NCBI GenBank assembly: GCA_024137785.1
Contig: JAHRHZ010000021.1
Coordinates: 24,388,895 to 24,452,894, forward strand
Source of the DNA: Ginglymostoma cirratum
Lineage: Eukaryota
Length of the DNA stretch: 64,000 nucleotides
Reading direction: 5' to 3'
Part shown: piece after piece, positions 4,516 through 61,637 of the stretch
Layout: each line of letters starts with the position of its first letter
How positions within the stretch are numbered: the stretch's first letter is position 1
Notes under the pieces: model-generated
What the model saw: the letters and a program-made list of their open reading frames with translations, nothing else
Told to the model about the DNA's origin: nothing
The model's database searches: none
Translations under genes and position numbers: made by a program

Positions 4516-6671
4516 TGTCAGAGATGTGGGATTTGGATTATATAGATAATCTGGGGACCTGATGTTGTATATTATAAACAAAAGGTTATAATTATGCTCA
4601 TCCCTTAAATTAAAGTAACTACATCATGTCATAGATACCCCACATTCCAAAAGGGACTGGAGGTTGGTGTGCAAGGAGGCAGTTTTACTGTTCCTGCATC
4701 TATAAGACAGTCTTACAAAAGCACAGATATTTGACTTTTCTTCCTCAAGGTGCCTTGCAGTCGTTGTTTCAGTTTCCACGTTTCTTAGAATTAAGCAATA
4801 AACTAAGCTTTGTGCAAGATTGCAGATTATTTCCTTAACAAAAAGAGCTCATGAAATTGAAAGTAATTCCCATTCTTTGATCACTTTTGAACAAGTTATG
4901 GCATTGAGACAGAAAGTGGCAACGTTGTTCTTCAGAGTTTCAGTTAATACTTTTTTTGAAGAACGAAGACAATGCTGTTTGAGAAGTAATAGAGATTTGC
5001 TTCAAGCAATTTTTTCTGAATTATCTCCTGATTTTACCACATCCTTTTTGACATTATGAAATCAGAATTATGACCTTGCCAAATTGCCTACTGTTAAGTA
5101 ATTCCATTTTTAAAATTAATTTGATTAGAATTAATCCTAGTACATATGCATTTGAAGTTTTTGCAGTATATAGATTATTTTAGCTCAGTTTGTGATTACA
5201 GCATTTTCATTTTAATTTAATCAGGATATTTTTTCTGCAAATTAGTAGGAAAGTGAATACTTTCCAATGACACTTAGCTACTTGTTTTCTGAAATGAACA
5301 TTGTTTTGTTTCCACAAGGTCTAAACATTCATCAGGTTCTTTGATACTCTCCTTTAGTATTATACTCATACTCCAAATGGACACTAGATTTGCATTTTAA
5401 TCTGCAAAAAGTAACATATATTTTACCTGTCATAATATAGAATTGCTGAATGCTATAAAAACTACTTGTTAAGCTATCCTGCATGCGAGATTTCAGGAAG
5501 TAAGTATTAGAAGCTCGATTGGGTCCAGAAGATTCACACAAATTTGTCTCTTCTTGCCTGGCATCAATCCACGCAGCTTCCAGCATAATGTGGGCCTTCA
5601 TCCAGTAAGGGTAAATTACTGATGGTGATGAGAGGAGGCCCTCTTATTGGCCTCAATAGGGCCAAAGACGGGGTAGACCGTCTGTCGCCTCCCCCATACC
5701 CCACATAACATTTCATCCGGGTTGGGTGAAACAAGTAGGTCTTCCGCTGGATTTAACACACCTTCATTCCTGCCAGCAAGGAAGATTAAAATCCAGCTAA
5801 TTAACTCTGCTTTCTCTTCAGAAATTCTGCCTGATCTGTTGAGAGTAGTTCCAAAATTTTCTATTCACATTCCAGATTGCCAAAATTCAGTGTTTTGCTT
5901 TAGTTTTACAATCAACAGAAAAACTGTGTACCTAGAAAAGTAAAAATTTTCCCCAAAGTCTGCCTGACAGATTGATGCAGTTAATTATACTTAACTTCAT
6001 TTTGACACACGGCAGATACCAAACAAAGAAATTAAAAAAAATTGCAGTCTATTTATCTCGACCCCCGTTATCTGGTTCCCAATGCAACGCAGGAGTTTCA
6101 AATTTATTATAGAAAGGCAGGCACTTCAGATAAAGCGACGAATATTTTAACATTTCTCCTATCTCGTCATCAACCAACCAGCTTCCAAGTCACGGTATTT
6201 TGTCAAGCACGGTCTGGGTGACTCCTGTGCTGTTCTTACGATGATAGCAGTTATACAGATCAGTTACATCTCACTGTAAAATGGCTACAGAAGCATTTTG
6301 ATACAGTCCGACGTCCAGATTTTCGTTTGGAATATGTGAACGTTCAAGGACAGTGAAACTTTCGTGCCCGTAAGGCTTTGTTTATAAATTTCCTACACTA
6401 ACCATGCAATGTTACGAGAAATGGGTCCATCTCAAAATTACCAGGCAAACATGAGACTTCTGCACCTGGAGGTATTCAAATGAAAAATCATCAGCAAGAA
6501 CAGCGGTGTTCCGAACGGTCCTTCACAGTGCACTGTCCTCAGCCTTCAGAAGAGTTACCTTCATGTGTCATTTAGTTTCGCCTCTCCAATAATAAGTTGC
6601 TGGTTTGGTAGAGCCTCTGTGTGGCTATTTCATTGTGAGGGGGGATCAGTTTGATGTTCAGCTCGGAATCT

Positions 6672-7075
6672 CTGAGTTTGGTTTGTGCAGTCTCTCTTTC
6701 TCTCCATTGGTTGTACAGCCTCTCTCTATTGGTTTGGTTTATGCAATCTCTCTTTTTCTCTATTGGTTTGGTTTGTGCAATCTCTTTCTATCTATAGATT
6801 TGGTTTGGTTTGTGCAATCTCTCTCTGCTTTGATTTGTACACTCTCTGTCTCCTGGTTTAGTTTGTGCTGTTTCTCTCTCTCTAGGTTTGATTTATGCAA
6901 TCTCTCTTTCTCTCTATTGGTTTGGTTTGTGCAGTCTCCTTCTATCTATAGATTTGATTTGGTTTGTGCAGTCTCTCTCTCCAGTTTGGTTTGTGCTTTT
7001 TTTTATAGGTTTGATTTATGCAGACTGTCTTTCTCTCTCTCGATAGGTTTCGTTTCTGTAGTTTCTCTATCGGTT
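6672..7075. repeat. Imperfect ~25-35 bp minisatellite (GGTTTGGTTTGTGCAATCTCTCTTTCTCTCTATT-like) upstream of the ATG
   Basis: About a dozen degenerate units; higher-order duplication 6731-6826 vs 6885-6980. Confidence 0.9.
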
Positions 7076-7140
7076 GCTGTGAATGGGCTCTGGTTTTTCT
7101 TTGCTGGTGGTCACTGCCCCCTGTCTGGTTGCTGGCGCTG

Positions 7141-7162
7141 TGTCTGTCTGTCTGTCTGTCTG
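7141..7162. repeat. (TGTC)n microsatellite in the putative 5' UTR
   Basis: tgtctgtctgtctgtctgtctg. Confidence 0.85.
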
Positions 7163-7203
7163 TATTCCCCCCGTCCCTCCCTCCCACCCCCTCACAAGGC
7201 AAA

Positions 7204-7278
7204 ATGGCGACTGAGAGCGAGTTGAGGCCGGACAGCGGCGACCCCTCGTCTGAGGAACGAGTCCCCACTGTCTGCCAG
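7204..7278 (+). CDS. CTTNBP2: CTTNBP2 first coding exon (MATESELRPDSGDPSSEERVPTVCQ)
   Basis: ATG in good Kozak context (aaaATGG), CpG-rich surroundings, donor CAG|GTAAAG at 7278/7279, phase 0; MAT... start and ~25 aa length match CTTNBP2 exon 1; joins in frame to exon 2. Confidence 0.85.
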
Positions 7279-8184: not shown

Positions 8185-8292
8185 AAGTCTGAATTTGACC
8201 TGGAGAGTCTGAGTAAAACCGAGCTGCTGACTTTCCTAAGTATCCTTGAAGGAGAATTGGAAGCCAGAGATCTGGTGATAGAAACGTTAAGG
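8185..8292 (+). CDS. CTTNBP2: CTTNBP2 coding exon 2 ([36 protein letters not shown]), CortBP2 coiled-coil domain
   Basis: Acceptor ttacag| at 8184, donor AGG|GTAAGT at 8292/8293; 108 nt; signature LSK.EL...[16 protein letters not shown] of CTTNBP2/CTTNBP2NL. Confidence 0.95.
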
Positions 8293-42487: not shown

Positions 42488-43724
42488 GTTGTAGATGTTG
42501 GTGTGTATCCCGAGCTGGGAAGTTTGATAGCAGATGTTTCGTCACCTTACTAGGTGACATCCTCAGTGCTGTGGAGCCTCCTGTGAAGCGCTATTGTCCT
42601 GTGTTGGTTCGAATTTATATTGTCTGGTTTTTGCTGTTTCCAGTAGGTGCCGGTTCTGGCTGCCCGTTGTAATGGTCGGTATATCGGGTTTAATTTCATG
42701 TGTTTGTTGATTGGAGTCTGAGGACGAATGCCAAGCCTCCAAGAATTCCCTGGCTGTCCTCTGTTTGACTTGTCTTATGGTAGTAGTGTTGTCCCAGTTG
42801 AAATTGTAGTTTTTCTCATCTGTGTGTATTGAAACCAAAGACATCGGGTCATGTTATTTAGTTGCCAGCTCATGTTCGTGGATGTGGGTTGCTAGTTGTC
42901 TTCATGTTTGTCCCACGTAGTGATTTGTGCAGTCTCCGTGTGGTATCTTGTAAACCATCCTGTCCATGGTATCTATTGGGACTTTAACCCTGGTCATTTG
43001 CCGTCCTAGTGTGGCTGCTGGATTGTGTGCTGTCATGATTCCTAGTGGCCTGAGTCGTCTGGCTGTCAGTTCTGAAGTGTTTTTTATATGTGGTTATGGT
43101 TATTGTTTCGGCTTTTGGTGTGTCCTGGTTGTGTTGTCTGTTGGCTAGGCAGCTGTGGGGGTATCCATTCCTGGTATTGACCTTGGAGAGGTGTTCTTCT
43201 TCCTCCTGCAGATTGCGTGGGTAGCAGCCCTTTTGAACAGGGTCCTAACACTGCTCCTCTTGTGTGATTTGGGGTGGTTGCAGTGATAGTTTAAGACCTG
43301 GTCAGTAAGTATGGAGTTCCTGTATACTTTTGCAGTGAGGTCACGTCCAGGAATGGGAGTTTGTTGTTTTCCTCTTCTCTTGTAAATGTGATCCCGTGAG
43401 TATGATGTTGATGAATCAGTGGGTGTTCTCACTTTCTGTTCTTTTAATAATTTCAAAAGTGTCACCCATGTATCTGATCCAGAGCTTGGGTTGGATCTGT
43501 GGGAGGGCTGTTTGTTCCAGTCTTTGCATGACTGCCTCAACTATCAGTCCGGAGATGGGTGAGCCCATGGGGAGTCCTATTGATCTGGTCGTATATCTTG
43601 CCATTGAGCGTAAAGTGTGTTGTTAAGCATAAGTCCAGTAGTTTGAATATGCAATGATTGTTGATCTGTTCCTCATTCTATCATCTGTTGCGTTCGTCTA
43701 ATAGGTTTGATATGGTTTCTTTGG
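42488..43724 (-). mobile_element. Penelope-like element (Penelope/Poseidon type), 5'-truncated: RT C-terminus, GIY-YIG endonuclease and pLTR
   Basis: GLPMGSPISGLIVEAVMQRLE, WIRYMGDTF, HPKSHKRSSVRTLFKRA, VYKIPHGDCTNHYVGQT, AREFLEAWHS; frameshifts and stops present. Confidence 0.92.
42529..42570 (-). ncRNA. Minimal type I hammerhead motif in the Penelope pLTR
   Basis: AGCA-CTGAGGA-T-GTCACCT agta AGGTGAC-GAAAC-ATC-TGCT: perfect 7-bp stem II, 4-bp stem I; ACAT is probably CpG-decayed ACGT. Confidence 0.75.
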
Positions 43725-48390: not shown

Positions 48391-49281
48391 AGAGATGTAG
48401 AAACTAGGAGCGGCGGTAGGCCATTCAGTCCTCCAAGCGTATGGCACCATTGAATATGAACATGACTGATCCTCAATTTCAATCCTATATTCCTGTTTTC
48501 TGTCCAGACTCCTTAATTCCTGTAATATTGGGAAAAATAATCAATCCTTCTTTTGAACATACTTGGCCTCCCCAGCTTTCTTTGGTAATACATTCCATAG
48601 GTTTACCACCCTCTGAGTGAAGGAATTTTTTTTATCTCCATCCTGTATGGCATACCTTGTATCCCTAGGCTGTGACTCTTGATTCCAGACTGCCAACCAG
48701 GTGAACTAAATCTGTTCTGCCCTTTTTAGAATGTTATACATTTCAATCAGATCTCCTCTCATTCTTCTAAACTATAGGGAATGCAGCCCAGTTGAACTGA
48801 TCTCCCTTCATACGATAGTCTTGCCATCCCTGCTGTCGGCCGAGGGAACCTTTGCTGCATTCCCTCTACGGTAGGTGTATCCTCTCCTTGTAGTGGGACC
48901 AAAACTGCACAAAGTACTTGAGCTGAGGTCTCATCTGTAAGCTTCTGCATAACTGCAGTAAGACTTCCAAACTTCTGAACTCTCATTCTCCTTCAATTTA
49001 GGCCACATGTGCCTTCCTAATTGCTTGCATCAGCCTGTCTACTTCTCTTGACTGGTGTACAAGGACATCCTTGTATGTTCATATTTCCCAATATATCACC
49101 ATTTAAGTAATGCTCTGCTTTTCTAGATTTCAAACCAAAGTGCATGACTTCACATTTATCCACTTTATTCTTCATCTGCCAGGTATGTGCCCGCACACTC
49201 AACTTGTCTAGATTACTCTGGGGGTTCCTTGCATCCTCCTCACAACCGCACCTAGTTTTGTGTAATTGGTAATCTTGGAAA
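48391..49281 (-). mobile_element. CR1 LINE 3' fragment
   Basis: WQMKNKVDKCEVMHFG, MQQRFPR...MARLSYE in minus-strand ORFs. Confidence 0.85.
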
Positions 49282-50039
49282 TCATGCGATTGGCTGTTAC
49301 CTGCCTGCTGGCATCATTTTGACTGCGCAGAAAGACATCTGCTGGACTTGTCTGATTTGACCTGCCATAGGGACTGAGGAATAAAGAGATTTGTAGATTT
49401 CTTTTGTATGTTATTACTGTTGAAGTCAGTGACCAGCAATGTTGCTTCAGCACTAACGAATCTATGCCACTGTCCCAAAAGACTGTAGCTGTCAATTTGG
49501 TTGTGCAGTTTGACTTGCTATTGCGCGATCTTGTTGAAAAAAACGCTGTTGTGCCCCTGAATTCTTCACGATTGATTGCTTCTGCTGTGAGCAATAGAGT
49601 GAAGGTTTGAGGCAGTTTGTTTGATCTTGTTTCTGGTGTTAAGAAAGGCCTGCATGCAATTTATCTTGCTTTTTGGGGCTGTTGCCGTTCAAGGTCAGTG
49701 TTATATTTTTGAACTTCTTTATTAGATATGATTCTTGGATCCAACATCAAATATTACTTTGAATGTGGACTTTATATCATCTTAGAAGCCAGTGTGTGTT
49801 TCAATTCACTTTAATTTCAATTCAAATTAAATTCGCTTTCAAGTAACGTTGATTTACTAGAATATACAGTCTGCTGCCACATGACCTCCTATTTTGGTAG
49901 CTAAATAACATGAAACCAAGTGGAATGTACAGCACAGAAACAGAATTTGTGAAATCTGCTTTATGCCAGTGATAATGCTACAGCTGAGACTACTGCTACC
50001 AACCCATTTTGCAAAGCCAAGAGAAGATGATGGAGAACT

Positions 50040-59155: not shown

Positions 59156-59496
59156 GTAGGTGGTCGGATTTGCCTAAATGGTTTTTATTTCCAGCCATTT
59201 ATCAGTGCAAATTAAATCATTGCTGGGTTGTTGAAATGTCTCAATTGGTTGGAAGAGTTACGTCGTAAATCTGTTACTCTGTGCGGCAAGTGTGAAGCCT
59301 TTAAAAATCAACTTTTCAGCTAATCCAAAAAAAAGAGATTCAGTTAGAGACATGTTTGTTCTTGCAGGTTGCCAGAACAAAACACCGCCATGCTGTTCAT
59401 TAATAGGCCAGAATTCACGGTTCATTTGAGTTGAACCCTATTTATAAAATCAGGAAAAGGGTTTCACAGAGTATGTCATTACTTTTCATTTGTTAG

Positions 59497-59604
59497 GTCA
59501 TCTTGGACTTTGAAGAGGAGAGGCATAAACATGCCCAAGATGCAGCCCAGGGAGATGATGTTACATACATGCTAGAGAAAGAGCGTGAGCGGCTTTTACA
59601 GCAG
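59497..59604 (+). CDS. CTTNBP2: Coding exon 4 (VILDFEEERHKHAQDAAQGDDVTYMLEKERERLLQQ), CTTNBP2NL-like segment
   Basis: Acceptor ttttcatttgttag|, donor CAG|GTGTGA; 108 nt, phase 0-0, open frame; closely resembles CTTNBP2NL VILDLEEERQRHAQDTAEGDDVTYMLEKERERLTQQ. Not in the ORF track; translated by hand. Confidence 0.9.
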
Positions 59605-61637
59605 GTGTGAAAATAAGACTTGCTTGAAATTATAGCAACTGACTTTTGAGCTAGCTGATTGGAATGATTTAAGACTCTGATGAAAATGTTGCAAAAGCCA
59701 TTTAGTATTCTTGAGAATTTGAATGAAAGGAAAACGTTACTGCGGTAATAATTTACAATAGTGGTATGTGCCAGATCAAGTTGCTCCCTGCTGAAGACTC
59801 AGCATAACCTGATCAGCTACTTGACATCTGAAACTGATTTTTTTTAAACTATCTGTATACCATGTGTTTAATGTGTCAAATGTGACCAGTATTCATTACA
59901 GAGTTGCAGAACAATTACAACCAGCAATCCTATACGCTTTGAATGAGAGCAATCCCCAATAAAATGCTTGCAGGGTTGTGTTAAGTGAGTCATTTTATAA
60001 ACTGAAAACAGTTATGATGAAAATGTTGTCCTAACCCATACTAAAGTTTAATAGTTCAATATTTTCTGCAGATCGTTTGGTCCGCCCATTGAATGGATAA
60101 ATTAGGTTTTCTAACCTGAGTTTTTTTTTCTCTCCAAATTTTTGTCCACTTTGTCAGTTCTCCATCCACTGGCCCCAACCAGATGAAGTCCCTTATTTAC
60201 TGAAGAAGGAACTGGTGTAGTTTCTGTCCTCTGTTAGAAAGAAAAAAACTGCCTGGCAATTTATTAAAGATTTGTCTGTCTGCCACAGTTTCACCAAATG
60301 ATATCTCAATGTCCTGACCAAGGTTTTCTTTCTAAAACAGTATTAGAAGCTCATTTGATTGTAAGTTCTGCCAACGTTAGTTTTATGTGGGTTATTAGAA
60401 ATTAAATTTTAATAAACAATGTGCAGTAATGCCTTTATTGAATGTTTCAAAAGCTATCCAAAGACATTGCTAGTAAATCTCTTAGCAGTACTTATAAATC
60501 ATCTTCCCAATGGCTTGGAATTTTTTTGCATTTATATTCTGAGGTAAACTACCCCACAGTAAATATTTTCTTTTCAGTAACTCTATTAGCTTAAGCACGC
60601 AAACTTATTTCATTAACATTTGTCTATGCACCCTTCTAATGGGTGCATTTCATTTGCTCGGAATATCATACATCCAAATGAAGTACTATTTAGATTGCAA
60701 TGAGAGCTACCTCTTTAATCTTTCATTGAAAGTGACTGCTGGTGTTATGTTTATTCATTAATATGCTATTGCAAACATTCCAGAGATTGAACATGAATTA
60801 TTTTTGTGGTATAGAATATTACAGCGCAACAAATTGCAATTAAAATTAGGGTACAACCCAGTCAAGCCATCTCCACAAAATAACAAAGTAATTGTATCAT
60901 TCTAATGAGGACAAGATACTTGAAGCAGAATTTTCCATTCCTTGGAATTAGACAAACAGTAGCAAGAAAGTTTGGAACGTGCGAACAGTGGGGAATAAAA
61001 ATGAAAACTCGGTGAGAGAATTTTCATCTCGCTGGTGAGCCATGACTACCTTATTGGCATCTCATAATTAGCTCAACTCACTTCATTTTTAAAACCGATT
61101 CCAGTTCTCCTTTCTTCTCTAATAAATGGGAACTGAAAATTCCCAATTTATAAAGCAGAGCTGTTAACTGGTGGCTGCAGATTGCCCATTCTGACCCGGC
61201 TGTCGTCATTATGCCTGCCCTCGCACTAATTCTTCAATTGCTTCCACCCCTCAACATTTTACTTTGGAGTTCAGGGGCACCTAGGACTTAGATGCTGCTG
61301 CCAGGTTGTTTCACACACAGGGGGTGCACATCCCAGCATCTAAACAGGAGGCTTCTAATGACTCTTAGCTTGATTTCTTAGCATTCATTCACTTCCCTGC
61401 TTACTTAACGGCTTCCAGCCTTGGCAGCTGCATTTCCTTTCTTGCACATTGAGAAAGGCTGACAGCATGTCGTGGTTTGGAACACTGAATGGGGGTAAGC
61501 ATGCCATTGTGATGCTTTGAGCTGTGTCAGGGTCATGACAGCAGCTCAAGCAGCAGCCAGACTGTTATTTGCTTCAACTCAGTGGTCACATCTTTAAATC
61601 AAAGGGGAGCATTCCTTAGTGAAGTGGGGACTATGAT

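Follow-up and report, generated by a model that had tools for sequence, protein, structure and literature searches.

The 108-nt exon at 59497..59604 of a 64,000-nt stretch of Ginglymostoma cirratum DNA (the window) is probably exon 4, in its ancestral state, of the stretch that encodes the CortBP2 coiled coil of shark CTTNBP2, an exon which is both included and skipped in the annotation of cartilaginous fishes and which was likely lost a single time, in the bony-vertebrate ancestor, where this would have fixed the skipped isoform. CTTNBP2 is an autism-linked synapse gene, and synteny with CFTR is among its known traits.

Exon 4 and the gene structure in the window

The coding features of the window, together with the intron that precedes exon 4, are the following.

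7204..7278, + strand: exon 1 of CTTNBP2, 75 nt, 25 aa counted from the first in-frame ATG
8185..8292, + strand: exon 2, 108 nt, 36 aa, with which the CortBP2 domain begins, 36/36 identical to whale-shark P0002
58925..59155, + strand: exon 3, 231 nt, 77 aa, ending in RHRK and leading into the long coiled coil
59156..59496, + strand: intron 3, 341 nt, GT-AG
59497..59604, + strand: exon 4, 108 nt in phase 0-0, coding for 36 aa, AG acceptor and GT donor

The length of each of the four coding exons is divisible by three. Exon 4 is preceded by an intron end reading catttgttag and closes with CAG followed by gtgtga; its + strand is open in frame and the - strand has a stop. The original prediction of a 108-nt phase 0-0 exon 341 nt past exon 3 agrees with these data in coordinates and translation. 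Exons 2, 3 and 4 match consecutive positions of the Pfam CortBP2 profile PF09727 (2-29, 32-109 and 110-145, respectively) with 41.4, 60.5 and 41.7 bits, where the Pfam cut-off is 26.9, and E values far beyond chance (2e-10, 2.9e-16 and 1.7e-10), and by these profile matches the three exons belong to the CortBP2 domain family. Neither exon 5 nor ankyrin exons were found by tblastn in the 64-kb window, the next exon lying beyond it, and a look at the repeats near exon 4 yielded nothing of note.

Exon 1 is identical to whale-shark P0002 at 25/25 residues and to zebra-shark P0173 at 23/25. Both of these models begin 36 codons upstream of the ATG of exon 1 in the window; in other sharks the start codon is the ATG corresponding to 7204. 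Just 5' of exon 1, positions 6596-7222 form a low-complexity, T/C-rich repeated stretch with a 209-codon open frame, into which the 36-codon N-terminal extension of the whale-shark and zebra-shark models reaches. Intron 1 measures 906 nt and intron 2 (8293-58924) 50.6 kb; the latter holds several - strand ORF pieces that resemble, by eye, LINE/reverse-transcriptase remnants (e.g. 42566-43540 and 48762-49313).

Identity of the gene

Over the four exons the window is identical to whale-shark CTTNBP2 (P0002, 1761 aa, with ankyrin repeats and an AAA-lid region) at 173/174 residues and to the zebra-shark protein at 171/174, and the closest match of exon 3 among those listed is Rhincodon CTTNBP2 (76/77). 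A maximum likelihood tree of 35 rows and 508 columns was built with the exon 4 columns dropped and with P0002 as proxy of the window gene. Its rows include 7 chondrichthyan CTTNBP2, 8 bony-vertebrate CTTNBP2 and 7 CTTNBP2NL (NL) proteins, three of the last being unnamed and judged teleost-like by our own reading. Chondrichthyan and bony-vertebrate CTTNBP2 group together (99/99), the NL rows form a separate clade (100/99), bony CTTNBP2 is a single clade (100/99), and the cyclostome placement is weak (84/78). The proxy of the window gene therefore groups with CTTNBP2 and not with CTTNBP2NL, in a tree that contains no shark NL. Constraining chondrichthyan CTTNBP2 to join NL costs 18.15 log-likelihood units, with moderate significance in the AU test (p=0.0325). 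Sequence identity, tree and AU test identify the gene as a CTTNBP2 orthologue, as had been proposed at the outset. The accompanying description of exon 2 as NL-like is rejected: exon 2 scores 125-131 against bony CTTNBP2 (4 rows), which exceeds the 115 obtained against NL (4 rows). A shark CTTNBP2NL was not found, tetrapod NL alone appearing beyond the query among the best 120 of 1083 matches.

Exon 4 as an annotated cassette in cartilaginous fishes

All 22 chondrichthyan species examined have gene models that include exon 4, 49 rows in total, and for 18 of them there is also a model from which precisely exon 4 is missing, 18 rows in total (these are counts of database gene models, not of reads). 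The whale-shark model, which is closest to the window (only one was seen), includes exon 4, and the Logan rows P0514-P0516 of a skate cluster are C-terminal fragments, uninformative on this point. Exon 4 looks like an annotated cassette exon in cartilaginous fishes, frame-preserving and with canonical splice sites, and the suggestion in the original prediction that it could be alternatively spliced is borne out at the level of annotation by the 18 species. Skip forms do not occur among the 6 amphioxus, 3 lamprey and 3 hagfish rows listed, nor does an exact skip form occur among the 133 NL rows checked (119 of them score-biased, the other 14 being listed members of a mammalian NL cluster).

Two features at the borders of exon 4 bear on its splicing.

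59464..59501, + strand: YCAY cluster, four motifs at 59464, 59476, 59486 and 59498, spanning the exon 4 acceptor
59605..59610, + strand: exon 4 donor, GTGTGA, 7/9 consensus matches

By the rule given in PMC2014790 (log10 assumed; cut-off 0.6) the YCAY cluster scores 0.90, a value reached by 9/828 intron stretches and 2/181 pseudo-acceptors, and the acceptors of exons 2 and 3 score 0 over the same span of -40..+20. The scan covered 8 motifs in 3 regions of one genome, and the YCAY cluster was picked post hoc. Seven YCAY motifs lie in the 110 nt before exon 4, a window size chosen after the fact, and such a density is met in 1/459 background windows and 2/2000 shuffles. Motifs for RBFOX, QKI and ESRP were found neither in intron 3, nor in exon 4, nor in the 400 nt with which intron 4 begins. 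YCAY clusters across a 3' splice site are reported as silencers that give exclusion in the brain (PMC2014790), which suggests 59464..59501 as a candidate, predicted NOVA silencer, a lead at about 1% background before post hoc correction. The donor is weakly suggestive of a soft splice site, with 7/9 matches as in exon 1 against 8/9 in exons 2 and 3.

It is improbable that exon 4 is constitutive, the skip models being annotation products or splicing noise and the loss in bony vertebrates a plain genomic deletion that was not preceded by a cassette stage. Such an account draws on the fact that skipping is known from gene models, not reads, and aligning bony-vertebrate proteins without the exon can influence such models; on the four species out of 22 without a skip model among the rows fetched (whale shark, Pristiophorus, Leucoraja and Amblyraja, with one row each); on the constraint on exon 4, which is stronger than on the neighbouring exons; and on a donor only slightly weaker than the others. 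It has to contend, however, with exact skip models in species across sharks, rays and a chimaera, with the lack of skip models among the 14 listed mammalian NL cluster members, with a YCAY cluster found at the exon 4 acceptor only, and with a mayfly isoform that skips the same block. We prefer the cassette reading.

Absence of exon 4 from bony-vertebrate CTTNBP2

The best 120 of 378 matches to exon 3 comprise 30 chondrichthyan and 90 other rows. Exon 3 is joined straight to exon 5 in 85 of these 90, the remaining 5 being short read-throughs. Among the exon-less rows are mammals, birds, a crocodilian, squamates and turtles as well as coelacanth, bowfin, paddlefish and sturgeon, and a further search added Xenopus and two named teleosts. 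The alignment gap in bony-vertebrate CTTNBP2 is exactly 36 columns, the human, coelacanth and bowfin isoforms are likewise without exon 4, and exon 3 ends in RQKK, the derived state, in 105 of 108 exon-less rows. Exon 3 runs directly into the next exon in the human models P0201-P0203 and P0206, and the mammalian CTTNBP2 models are without exon 4, so that the original claim of its absence from mammalian CTTNBP2 holds. The claim that the exon was lost in the mammalian lineage has to be abandoned, since CTTNBP2 of sturgeon, paddlefish, bowfin, teleosts, coelacanth and Xenopus lacks it as well.

Outside the chondrichthyans, 43 of the rows retrieved combine exon 4 with ankyrin repeats. Their exon-3 scores are at most 133, compared to about 290 in bony CTTNBP2, and therefore none of them represents vertebrate CTTNBP2. 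In a search among proteins of 376-1199 aa the chimaera query scored 511 bits and NL came next with 337 bits, no row falling in between; among the best 120 of 1083 matches, everything after the query was of NL type. A 23-aa insert after exon 3 in Paramormyrops P0241 was considered as a remnant of exon 4 and rejected, as its score of 41 is at background level; we read it as a gene-model read-through.

As exon 4 is absent from all bony-vertebrate CTTNBP2 seen, the simplest reading is a single loss, likely in the bony-vertebrate stem. Multiple losses (separately in ray-finned and lobe-finned lineages), or survival of an unannotated exon, seem to us very unlikely. CTTNBP2 of bichir, gar, lungfish and zebrafish is not among the named rows, absence is read from protein rows and not from intron DNA, and insects show that repeated loss of the block is possible; the same junction, however, is present in every bony-vertebrate row, almost always behind the derived RQKK, bony CTTNBP2 forms one clade, and a direct search with exon 4 (see below) found no bony-vertebrate long form. 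A single stem loss is the reading we retain.

Independent absence in insects

According to gene models, on which presence and absence in insects rest, some insects are without the same block independently of bony vertebrates. Three insect proteins show a 35-column gap, corresponding to exactly five heptads: isoform X4 of Cloeon dipterum and the proteins of Rhopalosiphum padi and Bemisia tabaci (exon-less mayfly, aphid and whitefly Naus/CTTNBP2NL-like rows P0333, P0341, P0343, P0376 and P0377). One form is listed for R. padi, and 3/3 cluster members of B. tabaci are without the block. The locust retains it in 15/15 rows listed from a cluster with 49 members, as do thrips and a wasp, and Neocloeon (P0285) and Lutzomyia (P0351) have decayed versions. 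Placed on the tree, these states need at least two changes.

Exon 4 is an ancestral and highly conserved segment by its distribution

A search with exon 4 among proteins of 968-3082 aa, which depends on five-residue words in common and would overlook a copy that had decayed, gave 71 matches from 77 candidates: 23 chondrichthyan CTTNBP2, 47 named invertebrate proteins, 1 unnamed protein and no bony vertebrate. The invertebrate carriers are amphioxus, hemichordates, echinoderms, molluscs, a brachiopod, an annelid, the horseshoe crab and Hydractinia. Ankyrin repeats accompany exon 4 in 47 of the 48 non-chondrichthyan rows (P0122-P0169), the exception being Hydractinia, and therefore exon 4 and the long architecture were both present in the ancestral gene. 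The domain composition of these rows is CortBP2 plus ankyrin in 47/48, with an AAA-lid region in most. The short architecture of CTTNBP2NL and of insect Naus looks derived and would have arisen when the C-terminal half was lost.

Lamprey and hagfish proteins named CTTNBP2NL retain the exon 4 segment. The cyclostome homologues found (P0233, P0374, P0375, P0266, P0378 and P0379) are all short, NL-named and with exon 4; an ankyrin-bearing cyclostome gene was not found among the rows retrieved. The segment is present in 133/133 of the NL rows checked (119 owe their ranking to an exon-bearing query and are hence biased), and FILIP-like rows have a diverged version (13-16/36 identical). Two unnamed proteins are worth recording: P0353 has a kinase (DAPK-like by eye) and ankyrin N-terminus fused to a FILIP-like CortBP2, possibly a gene-model fusion, and P0307, an NL-like fragment, is without about 40 residues in the exon 4 region, though not at the exon boundaries.

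Exon 4 of the window shares 35/36 residues with the chimaera, 28/36 with amphioxus and 27/36 with Hydractinia; for comparison, exon 3 shares 66/77 with the chimaera and 12/66 with Hydractinia. In a 40-row alignment of exon-bearing proteins, 16/36 columns of exon 4 but 9/77 of exon 3 are at least 90% conserved. By these measures no other block of the CortBP2 domain is as conserved as exon 4, and by its distribution it is ancestral and not an NL trait. The RHRK ending of exon 3 is common to amphioxus, molluscs and insects. Thus, the original prediction was right in taking exon 4 for the pre-duplication state, kept as it is in invertebrates, cyclostomes and NL, and in assigning the segment to CTTNBP2NL (mammalian P0220 is 30/36 identical); its description of exon 4 and RHRK as NL-like gives way to shared ancestral states, found also in amphioxus, molluscs and insects.

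It is scarcely credible that we are dealing with CTTNBP2NL in the window, or with a CTTNBP2 into which conversion from NL brought exon 4 back: exon 4 is indeed 30-31/36 identical to tetrapod NL, the scores of a proline-rich stretch (500-660) are much the same for the two paralogues and shark NL was missing from the tree, but the near-complete identity to an ankyrin-bearing whale-shark CTTNBP2, the tree and the AU test all go against it, and exon 4 is 25-29/36 identical to invertebrate outgroups, so that transfer from NL is unnecessary.

Predicted structure of the coiled coil

In the AlphaFold2 model of the chimaera protein P0015, exon 4 (residues 109-144) lies within a single helix (78-280), the pLDDT of which dips to 77 at residues 121-130, inside exon 4. 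The exon-less form is predicted as an unbroken helix (107-271) with a pLDDT of 93-98 across the junction. A two-copy prediction of P0015 residues 70-215 gave a parallel, in-register homodimer with a score of 0.50, the best of 3 controls reaching 0.01; the runs had at least 97% contact agreement and a pLDDT of at least 85, and an alignment was not used. In calibration, the dimer mark was reached by 21/30 pairs and 0/23 single chains of microbial origin and by 17/29 pairs and 0/30 single chains of eukaryotic origin; within the eukaryotic set the figures were 7/16 for animals and 1/7 for cases without an older solved relative. The pass of P0015 may reflect likeness to solved coiled coils. A PDB sequence search with the chimaera protein returned nothing but a chance match to a coiled coil, that of GrpE (E 0.24).

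Exon 4 is predicted to supply five heptads and one further residue to a coiled coil that is dimeric and parallel and has, in this part, a core of polar character (Glu, His, Asp and Gly). Its core positions in the predicted dimer are largely polar (E116, H120, D123 and G127), and the invariant residues A125, D128 and D129 fall outside the predicted interface, from which we infer that exon 4 most likely serves as a soft hinge and carries, on its conserved outer face, a docking site for a partner that is itself conserved. When the register is assigned by hand from the hydrophobicity profile and the interface list, a 4-4 stutter falls at the end of exon 4 in the including form; by the same assignment, removal of 36 residues would yield a 3-3 stammer and the insect removal of 35 residues would keep the register. 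Skipping would give a shorter, stiffer rod in which dimerisation and striatin binding are kept and the docking site is dropped.

Mouse CTTNBP2, a protein without exon 4, is reported to bind striatin through its N-terminal region (PMC3496612) and to homo-oligomerise via the coiled coil of its N-terminal part (PMC9106668). Oligomerisation, zinc binding and striatin binding are all ascribed to this N-terminal region (PMC3496612, PMC9106668, PMC7654188), and exon 4 is therefore not required for these activities. The relevance for striatin binding which the original prediction had attached to the exon is not sustained, as mammalian CTTNBP2 binds striatin without it (PMC3496612). STRIPAK complexes that contain CTTNBP2 or NL are said to exclude SLMAP-SIKE (PMC6323126). 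RhoD was considered as a partner of exon 4 and rejected, its reported site in FILIP1 (431-778) being outside CortBP2 (PMC3521688).

Discussion

We propose that after the CTTNBP2/NL duplication exon 4 became optional in CTTNBP2 and was kept in NL. Given the NOVA-type YCAY cluster at the acceptor, skipping would likely be neural, and loss of the exon in bony vertebrates would have made the skipped isoform permanent. A more far-reaching version, which we regard as doubtful, would see in exon 4, as the motif that defines the CortBP2 family, a removable docking module, NOVA-silenced in the neurons of early jawed vertebrates and hard-wired in the silenced state by the exon deletion of bony vertebrates, which would be part of the reason why CTTNBP2 and not CTTNBP2NL builds spines; whiteflies and aphids would have dropped the module independently, and sharks would keep the switch. 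CTTNBP2NL reportedly cannot replace CTTNBP2 in dendritic-spine formation, and both bind cortactin and striatins (PMC3496612).

Exon 4, the most conserved motif of the family, is the largest discrete difference in the coiled coil shared by CTTNBP2 and CTTNBP2NL, and the shark isoforms are a natural matched pair differing solely in 36 residues. The history of CTTNBP2 exon 4 is a dated example of an ancient exon that was kept, became optional and was lost. The isoforms are already in public annotation, and their evolutionary reading appears to be absent from the literature searched, in which no publication on exon 4 was found and which mostly leaves subscription journals outside its coverage. The relevant passages of PMC3496612 do not discuss the exon 4 gap between mouse CTTNBP2 and NL, expected to be visible in Figure 1 of that paper.

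Mammalian CTTNBP2 shares with the shark gene the start of the CortBP2 domain in exons 2-3 and the long N-terminal helix, and with the matching shark proteins the proline-rich cortactin motif and the ankyrin-bearing long form. It differs in being without exon 4, in the derived RQKK at the end of exon 3, and in a coiled coil that is 36 residues shorter with a probable change of register at the junction. CTTNBP2NL and the single-copy homologues of the Drosophila Nausicaa type (PMC6602326) carry the exon 4 segment, as the shark gene does; unlike shark CTTNBP2, CTTNBP2NL forms a separate clade, and ankyrin repeats are absent from the NL rows listed. That a naus-like ancestor was duplicated is put forward in PMC6602326 as speculation only.

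Shark exon 4, a candidate for NOVA silencing by its sequence motif, resembles the neogenin and Stxbp2 exons silenced by NOVA (PMC2014790) in having a YCAY cluster across the 3' splice site, and the score of the shark cluster exceeds the cut-off. Exon loss via skipping, with convergent losses, is already known, e.g. for exon 3 of TNNI3, an in-frame exon that, like exon 4 of CTTNBP2, is skipped in some lineages and lost in others (PMC12992808). Unlike TNNI3, the CTTNBP2 event would lie at the base of bony vertebrates, after a duplication, with a paralogue that keeps the exon; it is known from sequence. Separation of isoforms between paralogues after duplication has also been described (PMC4494069, the main text of which names CTTNBP2 0 times). 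The cases reported there involve mutually exclusive homologous exons, unlike CTTNBP2, but the outcome is alike: NL encodes the including form and bony-vertebrate CTTNBP2 the skipping form.
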